Origin: Escherichia coli
Lineage (GTDB): Bacteria > Pseudomonadota > Gammaproteobacteria > Enterobacterales > Enterobacteriaceae
Strand: one strand, 5' to 3'
Length of the DNA stretch: 35,452 nt
Assembly (NCBI RefSeq): GCF_003334305.1
Contig: NZ_QOWS01000033.1
The position numbers and the translations under genes are program-made. Numbering within the stretch: position 1 is the first letter of the stretch; every line of letters begins with the position of its first letter. The notes under the pieces were generated by a model, which had not been told where the DNA came from, searched no databases, and worked only from the letters and a program-made list of their open reading frames with translations. This document shows, piece by piece, positions 4,430-11,866 of the stretch.

Positions 4430-4563
4430 CGGTTGACGATCTGGTGGCAGATATCGCCACCATTTTTCACTGGCCGCCATCCGTTACTGACGTTATGCCG
4501 CTGACCGAAGTGCTGGAATGGCGGTATAAAGCGATTCAGAGAAGCGGGGCCAACGATGAGTGA
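4127..4563 (+). CDS. gpE+E' frameshift-extended tail chaperone (join 4127..4389, 4389..4563)
   Basis: Hand translation of the -1 frame after the heptamer gives VEEVGACRFTDSLTVDDLVADIATIFHWPPSVTDVMPLTEVLEWRYKAIQRSGANDE*. The TGA at 4561-4563 overlaps the T start. Confidence 0.8.
4384..4390 (+). other. -1 programmed frameshift slippery heptamer T TTT TTG
   Basis: TTTTTTG sits in the frame T.TTT.TTG of gpE, the same heptamer reported for P2 E/E+E'. The -1 frame stays open to 4563. Confidence 0.8.
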
Positions 4564-7500
4564 TAACAACCTGCGTCTGCAGGTCATTCTTAATGCGGTT
4601 GACAAGCTCACCCGCCCATTTCGATCTGCGCAGGCCAGTTCAAGAGAACTGGCTGCTGCTGTCAAAAAATCCCGCGATGCAATAAAGCAGCTTGATCAGG
4701 CCGGGAGCAGTCTGGACAGCTTCCGAAAGCTGCAGGCAGAAAATCAGAAATTAGGCGACAGGCTGAACTATGCCCGCCAGCGTGCAAATTTGCTCAGTCA
4801 GGAACTGGGAGCGATGGGGCCGCCTTCGCAACGTCAGGTTGTTGCTCTGGGCCGTCAACGGCTGGCTGTTCAGCGCCTGGAAGAACGCCAGAAAAAGCTG
4901 CAGCAGCAGACGGCGCTTGTGCGTGCTGAACTGTACCGGGCGGGAATTTCTGCGAAAGACGATGCGGGAGCAACTGCCCGTTTAGCCCGTGAAACATCAC
5001 GTTATAACCAGGAACTTTCGAAACAGGAGGCGCGGCTGAAGCGACTGGGGGAAGCTCAGCGCAGGATGAATGCAGCGCGTGCCAGTTATGCCCGTTCGCT
5101 GGAGGTGCGTGATCGTATTGCAGGTGCCGGAGCCACCACCACGGCTGCAGGGCTGGCAATGGGTGCGCCAGTGATGGCGGCAGTAAAAAGCTATACCAGC
5201 ATGGAAGATGCCATGAAAGGTGTGGCAAAGCAGGTCAATGGTCTGCGTGACGATAATGGCAACCGCACTGCACGTTTTTATGAAATGCAGGATGCCATCA
5301 AGGCTGCCAGCGAACAGTTGCCGATGGAAAACGGTGCGGTGGACTTCGCTGCACTGGTTGAAGGTGGTGCGCGCATGAACGTCGCAAACCCTGACGACAG
5401 CTGGGAAGATCAGAAACGTGACCTGCTGGCCTTCGCCAGTACGGCAGCAAAGGCGGCAACAGCCTTTGAGCTGCCAGCGGATGAACTGTCAGAAAGTCTG
5501 GGGAAAATCGCCCAGCTCTACAAAATCCCCACCCGCAATATTGAACAGCTCGGTGATGCGCTGAACTATCTGGATGATAACGCCATGTCGAAAGGGGCAG
5601 ACATCATTGATGTGATGCAACGTCTGGGCGGTGTGGCTGACCGTCTGGATTATCGTAAAGCGGCGGCGCTGGGTTCCACCTTCCTGACACTGGGCGCTGC
5701 GCCGGAGGTTGCAGCCAGTGCAGCAAACGCGATGGTGCGTGAATTGTCCATTGCCACCATGCAAAGCAAGAGTTTCTTTGAAGGGATGAATCTGCTGAAA
5801 CTCAATCCTGAAGTGATTGAAAAGCAGATGACGAAGGATGCGATGGGAACCATCCAGCGCGTGCTGGAGAAGGTAAACGCGCTGCCGCAGGACAAGCGCC
5901 TGTCTGCCATGACTATGTTGTTTGGTAAAGAGTTTGGCGATGACGCGGCGAAACTGGCAAACAACCTGCCGGAACTGCAGCGTCAGTTAAAACTGACAGC
6001 GGGCAATGATGCGCTTGGCTCCATGCAGAAAGAATCCGACATTAACAAGGATTCACTTTCTGCGCAGTGGTTGCTGGTCAAAACCGGAGCGCAGAACACC
6101 TTCAGCAGCCTGGGCGAAACGCTGCGCCAGCCGCTGATGGATATTCTGTACACGGTGAAAAGCGTCACGGGGGCGTTGCGTCGCTGGGTGGAAGCTAACC
6201 CGGAACTGACAGGCACACTGATGAAAGCATCGGCTGTTGTGGCTGCGGTTACCGTCGGCCTCGGCACCTTAGCGGTGGCGCTGGCTGCAGTGCTGGGGCC
6301 GCTGGCAGTGATCCGTCTGGGATTCTCTGTGTTGGGTATCAAAACGTTATCTTCCGTTACGGCAGCAGTAACTCGAACCAGCAGCGCGTTGTCCTGGCTG
6401 GCTGGCGCACCACTGGCACTGCTGCGACGCGGGCTTGCTTCATCGGGCAACGCCGCAGGTTTACTTACTGCGCCGTTGTCGTCTTTGCGCCGCACGGCAT
6501 CACTGACGGGAAATGTCCTGAAAACTGTAGCAGGTGCGCCGGTTGCACTTTTGCGGTCTGGATTATCCGGTTTACGTGCGGTTGCTGTGATGTTTATGAA
6601 TCCACTGGCAGCACTACGCGGCGGGCTGGCTGCCGCAGGCACGGTGCTGCGAGTACTGGCATCTGGTCCACTGGCGATGTTGCGCGTTGCCCTGTATGCC
6701 GTATCTGGTCTGTTAGGTGCTCTGCTCAGTCCGATAGGTCTTGTGGTTACTGCACTGGCGGGTGTGGCACTGGTTGTCTGGAAATACTGGCAACCCATCA
6801 CCGCATTTCTCGGTGGCGTGGTGGAAGGATTCAAAGCGGCGGCAGGTCCCATCAGTGCAGCGTTCGAACCGCTTAAGCCTGTGTTCCAGTGGATTGGTGA
6901 CAAAGTGCAGGCGCTGTGGGGCTGGTTTACTGATCTGCTGACGCCCGTTAAGTCGACTTCTGCCGAACTGCAGAGCGCAGCGGCAATGGGGCGACGATTC
7001 GGGGAGGCACTGGCGGAAGGGCTGAATATGGTCATGCATCCGCTGGACTCCCTGAAATCCGGCGTTTCCTGGTTGCTGGAGAAGCTCGGCATTATCAGTA
7101 AAGAGGCCGCAAAGGCAAAACTGCCGGAAAGCGTGACGCGTCAGCAACCTGCGACGGTGAATGCAGACGGTAAAGTGATGATGCCATCGGGTGGTTTTCC
7201 GTCATGGGGATATGGCTTTGCGGGGATGTATGACAGCGGCGGCTATATCCCGCGCGGGCAGTTTGGCATCGTCGGTGAAAACGGGCCGGAAATTGTTAAC
7301 GGCCCGGCAAATGTGACCAGCCGGAGAAATACAGCTGCACTGGCTGCCGTTGTTGCCGGAATGATGGGCGTTGCTGCCGCGCCTGCAGAGCTTCCACCGT
7401 TGCACCCTTTGGCACTTCCCGCGAAAGGCGGCGAAGCGATGGTGAGTCGTGCAGCCACTGTGCCGCCCGTTCAACGGATTGAGGCACCGATGCAGATCAT

Positions 7501-7633
7501 CATTCAGACGCAGCCAGGACAAAGTGCGCAGGATATTGCGCGGGAGGTGGCCCGCCAGCTTGATGAACGTGAACGCAGGCTGAAGGCAAAAGCCAGGAGT
7601 AACTACAGCGATCAGGGGGGATACGACGCATGA
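4556..7633 (+). CDS. Tail tape measure protein (gpT)
   Basis: 1025-aa ORF with a coiled-coil N-terminus and a central hydrophobic repeat block. Its position after E/E' fits. Confidence 0.95.
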   Translation: MSDNNLRLQVILNAVDKLTRPFRSAQASSRELAAAVKKSRDAIKQLDQAGSSLDSFRKLQAENQKLGDRLNYARQRANLLSQELGAMGPPSQRQVVALGRQRLAVQRLEERQKKLQQQTALVRAELYRAGISAKDDAGATARLARETSRYNQELSKQEARLKRLGEAQRRMNAARASYARSLEVRDRIAGAGATTTAAGLAMGAPVMAAVKSYTSMEDAMKGVAKQVNGLRDDNGNRTARFYEMQDAIKAASEQLPMENGAVDFAALVEGGARMNVANPDDSWEDQKRDLLAFASTAAKAATAFELPADELSESLGKIAQLYKIPTRNIEQLGDALNYLDDNAMSKGADIIDVMQRLGGVADRLDYRKAAALGSTFLTLGAAPEVAASAANAMVRELSIATMQSKSFFEGMNLLKLNPEVIEKQMTKDAMGTIQRVLEKVNALPQDKRLSAMTMLFGKEFGDDAAKLANNLPELQRQLKLTAGNDALGSMQKESDINKDSLSAQWLLVKTGAQNTFSSLGETLRQPLMDILYTVKSVTGALRRWVEANPELTGTLMKASAVVAAVTVGLGTLAVALAAVLGPLAVIRLGFSVLGIKTLSSVTAAVTRTSSALSWLAGAPLALLRRGLASSGNAAGLLTAPLSSLRRTASLTGNVLKTVAGAPVALLRSGLSGLRAVAVMFMNPLAALRGGLAAAGTVLRVLASGPLAMLRVALYAVSGLLGALLSPIGLVVTALAGVALVVWKYWQPITAFLGGVVEGFKAAAGPISAAFEPLKPVFQWIGDKVQALWGWFTDLLTPVKSTSAELQSAAAMGRRFGEALAEGLNMVMHPLDSLKSGVSWLLEKLGIISKEAAKAKLPESVTRQQPATVNADGKVMMPSGGFPSWGYGFAGMYDSGGYIPRGQFGIVGENGPEIVNGPANVTSRRNTAALAAVVAGMMGVAAAPAELPPLHPLALPAKGGEAMVSRAATVPPVQRIEAPMQIIIQTQPGQSAQDIAREVARQLDERERRLKAKARSNYSDQGGYDA

Positions 7634-8115
7634 TGATGGTGCTGGGATTGTACGTGTTTATGCTGCGCACCGTGCCGTATCAGGAGCTGCAGTATCAACG
7701 CAGCTGGCGACATGCGGCAAACAGCCGGGTAAACCGACGTCCGTCCACGCAGTTTCTGGGACCGGACAACGACATGCTGACGCTTTCCGGTGTTCTTATG
7801 CCGGAGATAACAGGTGGCAGGCTGTCGTTGCTGGCACTGGAGCAGATGGCAGAACAGGGGAAAGCATGGCCCCTGATTGAAGGCAGCGGCACGATTTATG
7901 GCATGTATGTGATTGAGGGACTGAATCAGACTAAAACGGAGTTTTTCCGCGACGGTATGCCGCGCCGGATTGAGTTCACCCTGTCGCTCAAACGGGTGGA
8001 TGAATCCCTGTCCGATATGTTCGGTGATCTCAGTGCGCAACTGAATAATCTGCAGGAAACGGCAACGTCTGCCTTAAGCGATATCAGTAAAACGGTGGGA
8101 GGGCTGCTGTCGTGA
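7630..8115 (+). CDS. Tail protein gpU
   Basis: 161 aa, ATGA overlap with T. MMMVLGLYVFMLRTVPYQELQ.. is a P2 gpU-type sequence. Confidence 0.9.
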   Translation: MMMVLGLYVFMLRTVPYQELQYQRSWRHAANSRVNRRPSTQFLGPDNDMLTLSGVLMPEITGGRLSLLALEQMAEQGKAWPLIEGSGTIYGMYVIEGLNQTKTEFFRDGMPRRIEFTLSLKRVDESLSDMFGDLSAQLNNLQETATSALSDISKTVGGLLS

Positions 8116-9212
8116 ATTTCAGCTCTGAACTGCTTAACAAAAGCAACAAAACTCCGGCATTCAGCATCAGTATTGAGGGCAGGGATATCACTACTGTGCT
8201 GGATAACCGCCTGATGAGTCTGACTCTGACGGACAATCGGGGCTTTGAAGCAGACCAGCTTGATCTGGAGCTGGACGATGCCGACGGGAAAATCGTGCTG
8301 CCGCGCCGTGGTGCGGTCATTACGCTGGCGCTGGGCTGGAAGGGGCAGCCGCTTTTCCCGAAAGGGGCATTCACGGTGGACGAGATTGAACACACTGGCG
8401 CACCGGACCGCCTGACTATCCGGGCGCGAAGTGCTGATTTTCGGGAAACGCTGAATACCCGCCGTGAAAAATCGTGGCACAAGACCACCATTGGGGAAGT
8501 GGTGAAGGAGATAGCCGCGCGGCACAAGCTGAAGATGGTACTGGGTAAAGACCTGTCGGATAAGCTCGTGGAGCATATAGACCAGACTAATGAGAGTGAC
8601 GGTAGTTTTCTGATGCGGCTGGCGCGCCAGTACGGTGCTATTGCGTCGGTGAAAAATGGCAATCTGTTATTCATCCGGCAGGGACAGGGCAAAAGTGCCA
8701 GCGGTAAACCACTGCCGGTGATCACTATCACACGTAAGGACGGCGACAGTCACCGCTTTACCCTGGCAGATCGCGGAGCCTATACGGGCATAATTGCCAG
8801 CTGGTTGCATACCCGCGAACCCGCGAAGAAAGAAAGCACCACGGTGAAGCGTAAGCGCAGGACTAAGAAGCAGAAGAAAGAGCCGGAAGCGAAGCAGGGC
8901 GATTACCTGGTGGGTACGGATGAAAACGTGCTGGTACTTAATCGCACTTATGCCAACCGGAGCAACGCTGAACGGGCAGCGAAAATGCAGTGGGAACGCC
9001 TGCAACGCGGCGTTGCGTCATTCTCGCTACAACTGGCGGAAGGGCGGGCAGATCTCTACACGGAAATGCCAGTGAAAGTCAGTGGCTTTAAACAGCCGAT
9101 AGATGATGCGGAATGGACCATTACGACTCTGACACATACCGTCAGCCCGGATAATGGTTTTACGACCAGTCTTGAGCTTGAAGTGAAGGTTGATGATCTC
9201 GAAATGGAATGA
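8112..9212 (+). CDS. Tail/late protein gpD
   Basis: 366 aa, GTGA overlap with U. The ..ISIEGRDIT..LMSLTLTDNRGFEADQLDLELDD.. motif is typical of gpD. Confidence 0.9.
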   Translation: MNFSSELLNKSNKTPAFSISIEGRDITTVLDNRLMSLTLTDNRGFEADQLDLELDDADGKIVLPRRGAVITLALGWKGQPLFPKGAFTVDEIEHTGAPDRLTIRARSADFRETLNTRREKSWHKTTIGEVVKEIAARHKLKMVLGKDLSDKLVEHIDQTNESDGSFLMRLARQYGAIASVKNGNLLFIRQGQGKSASGKPLPVITITRKDGDSHRFTLADRGAYTGIIASWLHTREPAKKESTTVKRKRRTKKQKKEPEAKQGDYLVGTDENVLVLNRTYANRSNAERAAKMQWERLQRGVASFSLQLAEGRADLYTEMPVKVSGFKQPIDDAEWTITTLTHTVSPDNGFTTSLELEVKVDDLEME

Positions 9213-9302
9213 TTCTTCACAATGGAGAACTTTTAAGTTTGAAAAATGGAATAATGCGATATCATTATTGTGAATTTAGCAAAAATGGGGAGAACTCGAA
9301 AA

Positions 9303-9521
9303 ATGATGATTTGCCCACTGTGTGGAAGTGCCGCCCATACTCGCAGCAGTTTTCAGGTATCTTCATTGACCAAAGAGCGTTACAACCAGTGCCAGAACAT
9401 TAACTGCAGCCATACTTTTGTTACCCATGAAACTTTTGTTCGTTCGATTGCAACGCCAAAAGAGTCAAATCCGGTTCAGCCGCATCCTCATAAATTTAAA
9501 CAGGTGGGTTTGCCGATTTAA
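9303..9521 (+). CDS. ogr: Ogr late-gene transcriptional activator (zinc-finger)
   Basis: MMICPLCGSAAHTRSS...KERYNQCQNINCSHTF has the Cys-X2-Cys...Cys-X4-Cys pattern of P2 Ogr. Starting at 9303 gives 72 aa. The ORF track start at 9270 and the ATG at 9285 are alternatives. Confidence 0.9.
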   Translation: MMICPLCGSAAHTRSSFQVSSLTKERYNQCQNINCSHTFVTHETFVRSIATPKESNPVQPHPHKFKQVGLPI

Positions 9522-9585
9522 ATGGCGACATAACTACATGATTTAAAACTATACTTTTCTATAAGTTGAGGTTAAATTAACAATG

Positions 9586-9762
9586 CCTGACGTTAGCGGG
9601 GATTTATCCCCACTCCGTAGATATGTAGTTTGTCGCTTTGCGACTGCGGACCGATTACCTGATTGCCATGTAATCGGACGCCGACTTGTTAAGCTTTCTG
9701 GGCTAACTGGTTGTTATTTTTTATTTAGTTAGGGCCATGCGCTTGCGCTAAGAGACGTCAGG
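9586..9762 (+). ncRNA. Candidate structured RNA upstream of the RT (retron msr/msd-like or DRT-type template RNA); ends not determined
   Basis: There is no credible ORF. A long-range helix pairs 9586-9598 (CCTGACGTTAGCG) with 9746-9751 + 9756-9762 (CGCTAA / CGTCAGG), leaving a 4-nt bulge. It encloses abutting hairpins at 9598-9611, 9614-9650, 9651-9677 (8-bp stem CCGATTAC/GTAATCGG) and 9701-9736. Folded by eye only. Confidence 0.45.
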
Positions 9763-9782
9763 TATCTATGGAGGAACAAGTT

Positions 9783-9956
9783 ATGGATACAAACGAACTT
9801 GGCTTAGTTAAGGCGCGTGTTGAACTGATCACCGCTATGCTCAAATGCGCAACCGCGTTTGTTGGCTTAGTTGGTGCGGTTTACGCCGTTCTTAACATGG
9901 CCTTCAACTACAACAATTTAACTCATGACAATAGAAGTTCAAAGGTGGGAAGATAA
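9783..9956 (+). CDS. Small hydrophobic protein (57 aa, one predicted TM helix), candidate effector/toxin partner of the RT
   Basis: GGAGGA at 9770-9775 lies 7 nt before the ATG at 9783. The sequence is MDTNELGLVKARVELITAMLKCATAFVGLVGAVYAVLNMAFNYNNLTHDNRSSKVGR, with a hydrophobic core CATAFVGLVGAVYAVLNMAF. Its 3' end overlaps the RT start by 32 nt. It could instead be part of the ncRNA. Confidence 0.5.
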   Translation: MDTNELGLVKARVELITAMLKCATAFVGLVGAVYAVLNMAFNYNNLTHDNRSSKVGR

Positions 9957-10698
9957 ATTTGAGATTAAGCCCGGGGTTTGGGTTTATGTCCCAAGCGTTG
10001 AGGCACGTAAAGTCGGAGGGAAGATACTTCAGGCTGTCAGAAACAAGTGGATTCCGCCACTCTATTTTTACCATCTAAGAACTGGTGGGCATCTTAAAGC
10101 TGCCAGATTACACTTAAAAAGTGATTTTTTTGCCGTTGTTGATATTAAACAATTTTTTCAGTCAACGAGCCGTAGTCGTATCACCCGTGATCTAAAGAGC
10201 TACTTCACCTATTCTCAAGCGCGGGAAATCTCAACATTTTCAACTGTAAGAAACTTGTCCCATAGTCCACATAAGCATGTCCTCCCTTTTGGTTTTGTTC
10301 AATCTCCAATACTTGCAACCCTCTGCTTAGATAAAAGTTATTTTGGTAGCTTACTACGCCGATTGAACAAACATCATGATCTCAAGCTAAGTGTGTTTAT
10401 GGATGATGTGATCATCTCGTCAAACGATTTGGCCCAATTACAAGCGGCTTACGACGAAGCACTAGTGGCAATGCGTAAATCTGGTTATCAAGCCAACATG
10501 AGTAAAACTCAGGCACCATCGTCAAAGATTAGCGTGTTTAATTTAACTTTGAGTAAGGGAGTTATGAAAGTCACATCTCAGAAAATGAGTGACTTCCTGA
10601 TTGATTTCTATTCAAGCAATTATGAGCCGCACAGAATAGGGGTCAAAAACTACGTCGAAGCTGTTAATCCAGGGCAAGCGAAACTCTTTAAGTTGTAA
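9925..10698 (+). CDS. Minimal reverse transcriptase (257 aa), retron/DRT-like, unclassified
   Basis: RT motifs seen in order: KVGGKIL (motif 1-like), FFAVVDIKQFFQSTS (motif A, Asp at 10141-10143), LPFGFVQSPILATLCL (motif B'), LSVFMDDVIISS (motif C, FMDD at 10396-10407), GYQANMSKTQ (motif D), ISVFNLTLS (motif E). Only ~50 aa follow motif E. Confidence 0.85.
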   Translation: MTIEVQRWEDKFEIKPGVWVYVPSVEARKVGGKILQAVRNKWIPPLYFYHLRTGGHLKAARLHLKSDFFAVVDIKQFFQSTSRSRITRDLKSYFTYSQAREISTFSTVRNLSHSPHKHVLPFGFVQSPILATLCLDKSYFGSLLRRLNKHHDLKLSVFMDDVIISSNDLAQLQAAYDEALVAMRKSGYQANMSKTQAPSSKISVFNLTLSKGVMKVTSQKMSDFLIDFYSSNYEPHRIGVKNYVEAVNPGQAKLFKL

Positions 10699-10767
10699 TT
10701 GCGATCGCATGTAGTAGCAACTGGGCTTGACTGAATGTCTGCCGCCATTTTGCCGCCACTACTAAAG

Positions 10768-10795
10768 AAAAAAGGGCTACGCTTTCACGTAACCC
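10768..10795 (-). terminator. Rho-independent terminator immediately after ssrA
   Basis: The minus strand reads GGGTTACG-TGAAAG-CGTAGCCC followed by TTTTTT. It begins 12 nt after the CCA end. Confidence 0.75.
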
Positions 10796-10806
10796 CTTGA
10801 TTTATT

Positions 10807-11169
10807 TGGTGGAGCTGGCGGGAGTTGAACCCGCGTCCGAAATTCCTACATCCTCGGTACTACATGCTTAGTCAGTCTTTACATTCGCTTGCCAGCTGCG
10901 GACGGACACGCCACTAACAAACTAGCCTGATTAAGTTTTAACGCTTCAACCCCAGGCAGGGCTTCCACGCGATCTCTTTTGGGTTTGACCTCTCTTGATC
11001 CCCGTCCTAAGAGCGGAGGCTAGGGAGAGAGGGCTCTAAGCAGGTTATTAAGCTGCTAAAGCGTAGTTTTCGTCGTTTGCGACTATTTTTTGCGGCTTTT
11101 TACGAGGCCAACCGCCCCTCGGCATGCACCTTGGGTTTCGCAAATCCCGTCGAATCCAGAATCAGCCCC
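10807..11169 (-). ncRNA. ssrA: tmRNA (SsrA), 363 nt
   Basis: The reverse complement reads GGGGCTGATTCTGGATTCGACGGGATTTGCG...GGTTCAACTCCCGCCAGCTCCACCA. The tag ORF GCAAACGACGAAAACTACGCTTTAGCAGCTTAA (ANDENYALAA*) is at 11080-11048. Confidence 0.98.
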
Positions 11170-11183
11170 AATGTGTAAAGGTA

Positions 11184-11192
11184 AGTATACCA
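11184..11192 (-). promoter_or_regulatory. Probable ssrA extended -10 promoter element
   Basis: The minus strand has TGgTATACT, ending 14 nt upstream of the mature 5' GGGG. This is consistent with a short RNase P-processed leader. The -35 is poor. Confidence 0.4.
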
Positions 11193-11383
11193 GATTTATG
11201 AGCGCCATGACCAGCCTCAATGGCGTTATCGTTAAAGATTTAGCACCCATGTAGCCTGATTTTTATTCGATTAAGCAATGGGATGGCAACATTTGTGTCG
11301 GATGTGATAGCCAATAAGATGTTCATTCGCGCCGCCGGAGAGGGAGGCGCGGTGAGGAACTGGTCAATAATTGGAGTGCAGGT

Positions 11384-11866
11384 TTAACGGTGGGCGTTTT
11401 TCATGATACGTGCTTTATCCACCTGCCATTCGCGTTCTTTGATATCTGAACGTTTATCGTGCTGTTTTTTACCTTTGGCGACGCCGATTTTCACTTTGCA
11501 CCAGGCATTTTTCCAGTACAGGGAGAGCGCCACTACGGTATAGCCTTCTCGATTGACGCGACCGTACAATGAGTCCAGTTCGCGTTGGTTGAGAAGTAAC
11601 TTGCGGGTACGGGTAGGATCGCACACCACATGCGTGGAGGCCACGGCCATTGGCGTGATGTTAGCGCCAAACAGAAATGCCTCTCCGTCACGCAGAAGGA
11701 CGTAGCTGTCGCTGATATTGGCTTTTCCTGCGCGCAGGGATTTAACCTCCCAGCCTTGCAGGGCAAGTCCCGCTTCGAACTCTTCTTCGATAAAGTATTC
11801 GTGACGGGCGCGCTTGTTAAGCGCGATGGTCGCTGAACCAGGTTTATGTGCTTTTTTCTTCGTCAT
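11384..11866 (-). CDS. smpB: SsrA-binding protein SmpB
   Basis: The 160-aa sequence [45 protein letters not shown].. is recognised. It lies adjacent to ssrA. Confidence 0.98.

Follow-up and report, generated by a model that had tools for sequence, protein, structure and literature searches.

The compact reverse transcriptase (RT) gene considered here lies at the end of a P2-like prophage of Escherichia coli (RefSeq assembly GCF_003334305.1, contig NZ_QOWS01000033.1), in a stretch of 35,452 nucleotides referred to as the window. The locus raises the question of what an RT of only 257 amino acids does at such a position and whether it is a complete gene at all. The original prediction had offered two answers, namely a distinct, minimal RT lineage relying on its RNA or on a small protein for template clamping, and a copy whose C-terminus had been shortened near the attachment (att) site. 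The present analysis showed that the RT is not understandable alone, as it is part of a module consisting of a structured RNA, a small open reading frame (ORF) named SP, and the RT itself. On balance, we favor reading the locus at 9583–10698 as a three-part retron-type module, carried as cargo between the ogr gene and the att site of the prophage, in which the RNA gates the production of an SP toxin. The module is probably a new retron variant of type VI-like design lacking the helix-turn-helix (HTH) gene, and it would most likely serve as an anti-phage system. Its component features, in window coordinates, are as follows:

9583–9594, plus strand: a1, 5′ arm of the inverted repeat that closes the RNA (core CCUGACGU, 9586–9593), pairing with a2 and showing covariance
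9594–9596, plus strand: UAG following a1, with U in 54, A in 60, and G in 60 of 60 aligned noncoding RNAs (ncRNAs)
9598–9611, plus strand: msr-like hairpin 1 (GGGGAUUUAUCCCC), from sequence reading and the minimum-free-energy fold
9632–9644, plus strand: msr-like hairpin 2 (GUCGC-UUU-GCGAC), equivalent to the family GUCAC-NNN-GUGAY
9647–9714, plus strand: region of variable hairpins, presumably the main part of the msd template, varying in length and sequence between conserved flanks and forming two hairpins in the window
9739–9748, plus strand: terminal hairpin GCGC-UU-GCGC adjoining a2 (CCAUGCGC-loop-GCGCUAGG), almost invariant in 60 sequences
9754–9765, plus strand: a2, 3′ arm of the inverted repeat that closes the RNA, pairing with a1 and showing covariance
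9783–9956, plus strand: small ORF SP, 57 amino acids (MDTNELGLVKARVELITAMLKCATAFVGLVGAVYAVLNMAFNYNNLTHDNRSSKVGR), with an ORF of the same type in 72 of 81 loci and substitutions that follow a coding pattern
9925–10698, plus strand: compact retron-type RT, 257 amino acids, recognized by Pfam RVT_1, the family profile, and the AlphaFold2 fold

The RNA upstream of SP is arranged in the order a1, UAG, hairpin 1, linker, hairpin 2, variable region, U(G/A)(G/A)UU, terminal hairpin, and a2, and the 230 nt from ogr to the SP ORF folded better than shuffled sequences (z = −3.2). Comparison was made across 81 sources, that is, the window and 80 genomic loci. A covariance model (R1), built from 15 loci with the window and its close relatives left out, matched 60 of the 81 sources, once in each, always on the plus strand and just upstream of SP; it recovered the window element at 9580–9767 (33 bits, E = 7e-5) and matched 25 of 42 viral loci. 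In the 60-sequence alignment, 96.9% of the cells for a1/a2 and the two hairpins were paired, against 28–44% with slid partners, and 10 pairs carried double changes. The complementarity of a1 and a2 was retained while their sequence varied (CCUGACGUU/GACGUCAGG in the window; CCUGGC/GCCAGG, UCUUGGC/GCCAAGA, and CCCGGC/GCCGGG in other loci), with compensatory changes in seven of the eight pairs across 59 distinct sequences. A hairpin at the position of hairpin 1 was also found in other loci (e.g., GAUAGGC...GCCUAUC), and the stem of hairpin 2 was kept in 55–58 of the 60 sequences, the window clade showing an AU-to-GC compensatory change. An adjacent ncRNA closed by a1/a2, with a conserved G 3′ of a1, is a feature by which retrons are defined and was found here. 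Judged from sequence and covariation, the layout conforms to the msr-msd plan of retrons; G9596 is the candidate guanosine for 2′-OH priming (branching), and templated synthesis would begin at the terminal hairpin (9739–9748), next to a2.

A search of Rfam over 9000–11500 matched nothing but transfer-messenger RNA (tmRNA), and hence the RNA does not belong to a curated family. Within the presumed template, the Enterobacterales RNA carries a second variable hairpin followed by a U-rich run (UUGUUAUUUUUUAUUU; 9684–9730 in the window), which resembles an intrinsic terminator or attenuator and is absent from most other loci. The alphaproteobacterial loci L058–L080 contain SP (...NY) and RT, but R1 matched their RNA only weakly (L060, L068) or missed it; the RNA of these loci is probably divergent.

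The SP ORF is opened by a Shine-Dalgarno (SD) sequence, GGAGGA (9770–9775), and the ATG at 9783, and it extends 32 nt into the RT gene; translation is less likely to begin at the in-frame ATG at 9768. Proteins of the SP type have an N-terminus that is basic (often MKK...), followed by a hydrophobic or amphipathic helix of ∼30 residues, a conserved ...(M/V)(A)(F)NY, and a variable tail. Substitutions between related loci were distributed 64:42:107 by codon position, with 76 synonymous and 92 non-synonymous codon changes, and both Asn codons and both Tyr codons were used in the NY motif. This pattern of substitution and synonymous codon use identifies SP as a coding sequence, although not one with a match in Pfam, PADLOC, NCBIfam, or PHROGs. 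Clustering of the ORFs within 2.5 kb across the 81 loci revealed no conserved neighbor besides SP. No SD sequence preceded the RT start in 54 of 58 loci, and the SP stop lay mostly 3–99 nt beyond that start. The overlap, together with the missing SD sequence, suggests that translation of RT is probably coupled to that of SP. A programmed frameshift joining SP to RT is unlikely, the RT frame relative to SP being +1 in 62 loci and +2 in 11.

Two long-range helices were found to join the RNA to the SP message, and are formed by the following arms:

9613–9624, plus strand: anti-SD strand (CUCCGUAGAUAU), complementary to 9762–9773
9762–9773, plus strand: SP ribosome-binding-site strand (GUAUCUAUGGAG; GGAGGA at 9770–9775), pairing with the anti-SD strand
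9726–9738, plus strand: 5′ arm of the second helix, termed H3 (UAGUU + AGGGCCAU), the conserved 3′ part of msd, pairing with 9897–9910
9897–9910, plus strand: 3′ arm of H3 within the SP ORF (M-A-F-N-Y codons), ending 14 nt upstream of the RT AUG

The anti-SD strand corresponds to the linker just 5′ of hairpin 2, and its partner is the ribosome-binding region of SP just 3′ of a2, the SD-side arm ending 7–11 nt upstream of the SP AUG in most loci. The variable part beside the GGAG core changed in concert on the two strands (CAUC/GAUG, UAUUC/GAAUA, GACUC/GAGUC, and UUAGAUC/GAUCUAAGG). Cognate anti-SD/SD helices had a mean length of 7.70 bp as compared with 5.69 ± 0.19 bp for permuted locus pairs, and none of 20,000 permutations gave a value as high. 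As this helix crosses a1/a2, the pairings form either a pseudoknot or alternating structures. In the window clade only, the start region of SP (9762–9792) can also fold locally, GUAUCUAUGG with UUAUGGAUAC, which buries the AUG at 9783 and is an alternative to the anti-SD pairing.

In the window, H3 comprises 13 bp with C9905 bulged. Across the family, its 5′ arm consists of the conserved U(G/A)(G/A)UU and the 8 nt before the terminal hairpin. All five pairs of part 3a were present in 49 of 49 dereplicated loci, where the ncRNA base facing the Asn wobble base gave G:C in 42 loci and A:U in seven, mixed combinations being absent. Part 3b (8 bp) was paired in 70.4% of the cells against 34–45% with slid partners, with several pair types per position. 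The permutation test was weak for H3 (6.67 vs. 6.19; 10 of 20,000 permutations), because both arms are conserved in sequence, and the position-anchored pair counts are the informative test. The 5′ arm of H3 would be the first stretch copied from the a2 side, so that synthesis of complementary DNA (cDNA) should displace the SP message.

The RT was recognized by Pfam RVT_1 (E = 2e-21; 77 bits, cutoff 29.6), and translation of the ORF at 9925–10698 bore out its length of 257 amino acids. The earlier assignment of the motif A Asp to residue 73 and of FMDD to residues 158–161 stood, D73, D160, and D161 being invariant in the family alignment along with A59, H63, P121, G123, Q126-S127-P128 (in LPFGFVQSP), F205, and N206. 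Profile alignment to the Ec86 RT likewise agreed with the suggested correspondence of KAARLH (58–63) to the retron NAxxH, where A59-A60-R61-L62-H63 was placed, and of VFN to VTG, on which V204-F205-N206 fell. The consensus active site of the family is YMDD or YVDD; relatives at 66–83% identity all carry YMDD, and F158 is fixed solely in the E. coli/Klebsiella/Salmonella cluster that forms the window clade. FMDD reads, from the alignment, as a local variant of YMDD/YVDD.

The AlphaFold2 model of the RT had a predicted local distance difference test (pLDDT) score of 95.3. The impression of an RT with almost no thumb was not upheld, since the model predicted a short thumb (helices 218–230, 234–247, and 249–252) after the motif-E hairpins; the motif E-like ISVFNLTLS, said to be followed by only ∼50 residues, occupies 202–210 and leaves 47. 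Positions 13–250 of the family profile aligned to residues 59–295 of the 320 residues of Ec86 RT, which attributes the small size mainly to N-terminal loss (∼46 residues, against ∼20–25 at the C-terminus). A profile search of Protein Data Bank sequences gave retron RTs in the first 13 rows and in 14 of the top 15 (Ec86, Kva2, Eco8, Ec78, Ec67, and Ec83 among them), Ec86 being the best match (E = 4e-12) over nearly the full length. Structure prediction of the RT alone followed by Foldseek, as had been suggested, returned retron RTs as all of the top 18 matches (query TM-scores of 0.67–0.77), ranking above G2L4, DRT9, group II intron, and diversity-generating retroelement RTs. Both by sequence profile and by fold, therefore, the nearest relatives are retron RTs, as in the definition of Mestre et al. 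(2020).

Among the PADLOC models listed for the window RT (retron types I-A to XII and UG33), scores ranged from 27 to 63 bits, with RT_VI the best at 63. For 31 members of the family, RT_VI was the best retron model (E = 1.9e-24), with I-B (3.7e-22) and IX (2.3e-21) close behind, and all 31 matched retron hidden Markov models (HMMs) better than UG/DRT or group II HMMs. The NCBIfam model retron_St85 scored 49.5 bits (cutoff, 235), and the group II intron maturase model TIGR04416 only 23 bits (cutoff, 300). By way of comparison, a Klebsiella locus contains an unrelated RT that reached 235 bits with the generic PADLOC RT model to which it belongs; this 494-amino acid protein (L081:78–1562), situated 2.4 kb upstream of an SP–RT fusion, is probably of the group II intron type. 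No PADLOC, NCBIfam, or Pfam sub-model claims the family, and the proposal of a distinct minimal lineage was to that extent correct. Searching plasmids by tblastn for type VI relatives returned only family members and Ec67-type RTs, and the top 120 matches listed in the RT profile search were family members only. Going by these sequence comparisons, the RT appears to be of the retron clade, outside the 13 defined types as the PADLOC models capture them, and perhaps nearest to type VI.

In the mechanism that we propose, the RT would prime on the 2′-OH of G9596 and copy msd into single-stranded DNA. The resting fold would hold off SP translation, and cDNA synthesis with RNase H action on the template would undo the long-range pairing, allowing SP to be produced. 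RT, having no ribosome-binding site of its own, would probably be made along with SP, and SP would act as a small membrane-active toxin that aborts infection. The proposed switch follows the logic of the type VI retrons Retron-Vpa2 and Retron-Sen3, with like RNA logic and gene order minus the HTH gene. The type VI operon has the order ncRNA-SP-HTH-RT (10.1101/2025.10.22.683967; 10.64898/2026.04.27.721009). In Retron-Vpa2, a single “hybrid RNA” made up of msr-msd and the SP ORF represses the translation of SP, a toxin, and msDNA made during infection is needed for SP derepression (10.1101/2025.10.22.683967). In Retron-Sen3, an inverted repeat joins the msd stem-loop to sequence past the SP ORF (10.64898/2026.04.27.721009).

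Compared with the type VI systems (Retron-Vpa2, Retron-Sen3, and Retron-Eco12), the module is similar in the succession of ncRNA, SP ORF, and RT, in an SP that is a helical peptide (∼55–80 amino acids, with a hydrophobic C-terminal core), in a ribosome-binding site of SP buried in the ncRNA, and in an msd region that pairs with the far end of the SP ORF, making RNA and ORF one hybrid RNA. An SP ORF within a hybrid RNA with its ribosome-binding site sequestered was thus found here as well (SP in 72 of 81 loci, the anti-SD/SD helix, and H3). The RTs are small in both cases (the PADLOC RT_VI profile has 279 positions), and RT_VI was the top retron model for every family member. The RT_VI score was weak, however (63 bits for the window RT), and across the family barely above those of I-B and IX in this HMM comparison. 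The gene order differs, as type VI has an HTH gene (Cro/C1-type) between SP and RT, whereas here the SP ORF overlaps the RT start, and HTH ORFs occurred in only seven of the 81 loci, at variable positions and on either strand. The active sites differ as well (YADD in Vpa2 vs. Y/FMDD here), and the catalytic DD is at 193–194 in Sen3 vs. 160–161 here.

Retron-Eco1 (Ec86), the best match to the window RT by both sequence profile and fold, shares the a1/a2 repeat, the G in UAG context beside a1, the msr hairpins, and the variable msd hairpin. It differs in that the RT here is 63 residues shorter (∼46 of them N-terminal), that NAxxH, VTG, and YADD are replaced by AxxxH, VFN, and Y/FMDD, that the candidate effector is a small peptide between RNA and RT and not a downstream enzyme, and that the RNA forms two extra helices with the effector message. 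Type I toxin-antitoxin systems such as hok/sok, tisB/istR-1, and zor/orz have a small hydrophobic toxin whose ribosome-binding site is sequestered by long-range pairing inside the 5′ leader. The module resembles them in its toxin-sized hydrophobic peptide with a leader-sequestered ribosome-binding site. Unlike in those systems, no antisense RNA gene was evident, and a retron-type RNA coupled to an RT serves as the leader; the comparison implies no homology. A survey of the literature on new retron types, DRTs, and P2 hotspots yielded no description of an HTH-less SP-RT family of such size.

Several points weigh against this reading of the module. Multicopy single-stranded DNA (msDNA) production, its 2′–5′ branch, the toxicity of SP, and phage defense are all inferred. 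The motifs of the RT depart from those of retrons, with AxxxH for NAxxH, VFN for VTG, and Y/FMDD for YADD, and the retron HMMs were weak, at 28–63 bits as against 235 for a true member of another PADLOC RT model. R1 detected no RNA in most of the alphaproteobacterial loci. RT translation seems to depend on SP, so a resting state with SP strictly off cannot be complete, and in-frame SP–RT fusions fit a freely released toxin poorly. The anti-SD/SD helix and a1/a2 may coexist or alternate, and, since the Asn-Tyr of SP lies inside H3, part of the conservation of the peptide may act at the level of RNA.

A more far-reaching version of the proposal can be put forward only tentatively. The module would represent an undescribed retron type in which the coding sequence of the effector is part of the RNA used for reverse transcription, so that the nascent msDNA would be a sense-strand copy of the M-A-F-N-Y piece of SP. 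Reverse transcription would thus directly control, and be controlled by, the translation of SP and RT in an HTH-free feedback switch, and the fusions would be a membrane-tethered form of it.

Less likely is that the module works as a classical toxin-antitoxin retron, in which SP is made constitutively and neutralized by RT-msDNA, a phage factor that damages or titrates msDNA frees SP, and the helices only set the ratios. Such is the logic of most characterized retrons, co-translation is implied by the overlapping frames of SP and RT and by the lack of a ribosome-binding site for RT, and the SP–RT fusions imply physical association. Retron-Sen3 also makes both SP and single-stranded DNA constitutively (10.64898/2026.04.27.721009). 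However, the antitoxin of Retron-Sen3 is its HTH protein, the trigger being inhibition of RecBCD (10.64898/2026.04.27.721009), and such a protein was not found to be conserved across the 81 loci. The covarying helix over the ribosome-binding site of SP argues that SP translation is itself regulated, and the AlphaFold2 model of a fusion protein, described below, left the peptide undocked on the RT.

The in-frame SP–RT fusions (302–316 amino acids) occurred in at least three lineages, namely Klebsiella/Pantoea, Serratia, and one further. The fusion of Klebsiella pneumoniae, 302 amino acids in length (L082:4001–4909; ...NIVPNY-MTLSMSTPSDWLHKFEIK...), was indexed in 7802 blocks and is chromosomal, located between umuDC and a SRAP gene and not in a prophage. 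A Pantoea relative of the Klebsiella form, a 309-amino acid Serratia protein, and a 316-amino acid metagenomic protein were also found (P0019, P0254, and P0203 are among the fusion entries). In the AlphaFold2 model of the 302-residue fusion, the SP part was a single long helix (pLDDT 34–52), unpacked on the RT. This low-confidence model neither supports nor excludes docking of SP on the RT. The suggestion that a small protein clamps the template found no support in the analysis.

The fusions bear on another explanation, in which SP, instead of being an effector, would be an N-terminal part of the RT that has become detached (for example, a membrane tether or oligomerization helix), the system having another output or no toxin. 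We regard this as unlikely, even though the family is without the ∼46 N-terminal residues of the Ec86 RT, at least three lineages, including a form very common in K. pneumoniae, have SP fused in frame to the N-terminus of the RT, and no other effector gene is conserved nearby. The modeled SP helix did not pack on the RT, and SP is hydrophobic whereas the N-terminal region of Ec86 is not. Retron effectors are often fused to the RT (types I-C, XI, and XII), so that fusion leaves an effector role possible, and toxins are known among the type VI SPs, which resemble it in size and position.

It is improbable that the module is a non-retron, DRT-like system that uses its RNA in another manner (protein-primed, repetitive, or template-jumping synthesis) and makes no branched msDNA. 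The missing retron motifs NAxxH and VTG would be in keeping with such a system, and DRT2, DRT9, and DRT10 reportedly show that ncRNA-guided RTs are capable of unexpected chemistry. UG/DRT models nevertheless scored below retron models, UG33 being the best UG model listed for the window RT (33 bits), Drt3a reaching 17.6 bits against a cutoff of 200, and UG17 matching 28 of the 31 family members with a best E of 3.3e-15 as compared with 1.9e-24 for RT_VI. Placement in the UG/Abi group is not indicated by these scores. The DRT9 fold matches ranked under all retron RTs, and the closing repeat, invariant UAG, msr hairpins, and variable hairpin make up a retron layout.

A further question is whether the gene is intact. 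A word-indexed search placed the family in 72 clusters at 33–100% identity, mostly of 244–270 amino acids; an exhaustive phmmer search gave 158 representatives of 50%-identity clusters at E<1e-30, of ∼250–265 amino acids and matching end to end; and the family profile found at least 595 clusters at E<1e-6, nearly all of 250–265 amino acids and aligned end to end. The alignment of homologues proposed in the original prediction thus showed the compact length to be conserved, with nearly all relatives at 250–265 amino acids and not at ∼320 or longer. The C-terminal consensus of the family (...YVxSVNxxQA...) is retained in the window RT. Differences from relatives at ∼81% identity were distributed 40:23:94 by codon position (73 synonymous and 49 non-synonymous codon changes), which indicates purifying selection. 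Truncation near the att site was ruled out by the conserved length, the C-terminal consensus, and the selection pattern. That the RT is a decayed or truncated gene without function, left at the prophage end, is very improbable: the small size, FMDD in place of YxDD, and a distance of 36 nt to the att core speak for it, but the length is kept across hundreds of clusters, the catalytic residues are all invariant, purifying selection acts on the gene, a widespread clade shares FMDD as a fixed feature, and the RNA and SP are conserved alongside.

The module is situated at the right end of the prophage, among the following features:

4556–7633: tape measure gene, right end of the P2-like prophage
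7630–8115: gpU gene of the P2-like prophage
8112–9212: gpD gene of the P2-like prophage
9270–9521: Ogr/Delta zinc-finger gene, ogr (Pfam E = 7e-22)
10734–10810, no strand: att core of 77 nt overlapping the ssrA 3′ end, the right edge of the prophage cargo
10807–11169, minus strand: tmRNA gene, ssrA (296 bits, Rfam), with smpB next to it

The prophage is P2-like and integrated at ssrA, the att stretch at 10734–10810 being 91–95% identical to the att region of other ssrA-integrating P2-like phages. The surrounding genes and att coordinates place the RT module in a cargo slot of ∼1.2 kb extending from ogr to the att core, 36 nt before which the RT stops. The prophage provides the 3′ end of the tmRNA gene and its terminator, as an ssrA terminator-like hairpin (minus strand, 10771–10798) lies within the 77-nt att stretch. 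Rfam also gave sub-threshold matches to permuted tmRNA at 10629–10867 and 11048–11500, which scored 28 and 34 bits (gathering score, 47). They extend over the end of the RT gene and smpB, and are probably echoes of the true tmRNA match, not separate genes. A scan for promoters and terminators gave nothing above chance for the module.

Among 5,426 complete E. coli genomes, 28 carried this cargo stretch (1.29 kb) at 99.5–100% identity, as did 13 Klebsiella phage records. With one genome taken per species, 165 RT loci were found across gamma-, beta-, and alphaproteobacteria. The RT family was also present on 56 IMG/VR viral contigs, many of them 33–37 kb long with the RT at the extreme end. Upstream of the RT, gpD and ogr were found in 16 loci and gpD alone in three more; in one of the 16, the RT was only 42% identical to that of the window, which indicates that diverse members of the family reuse the ogr-att slot. 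Integrases in 10 loci and a relaxase family in four of the 81 point to mobile elements. Annotations of the exact RT clade of the window exist for Salmonella Typhi CT18 and for thousands of Klebsiella contigs, and many of these records call only fragments of 71–193 amino acids, which suggests frequent mis-annotation or local disruption. One family member (P0041) was mislabeled “RNase P protein component” by its source.

An RT as accessory cargo of P2-like coliphages has a parallel in Abi-P2, which Odegrip and co-workers reportedly described in 2006 as the RT of a variable locus of P2-like phages, of UG/Abi class 1. Abi-P2 is much larger and occupies a different slot of the phage genome, and we know of no ncRNA or small ORF accompanying it. 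It belongs to another RT lineage, UG/Abi models giving at most ∼33 bits on the window RT.

The findings expose a gap in detection, as PADLOC, NCBIfam, and PHROGs label the family only as “reverse transcriptase” or “polymerase.” An overlooked family of hundreds of clusters is present in alpha-, beta-, and gammaproteobacteria, is very common in K. pneumoniae, and occurs in prophages of E. coli and Salmonella Typhi as well. The ogr-att junction of P2-like prophages is a cargo slot for diverse members of this one defense-like family. Should the module work as a retron, the 13 types of the current scheme would gain another, and the hybrid RNA logic of type VI would prove able to run without HTH, helping to separate the role of the RNA from that of the HTH protein. 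Its RT, at ∼255 amino acids, would then be among the smallest of the retron type and of interest for retron genome editing, in which size is important.

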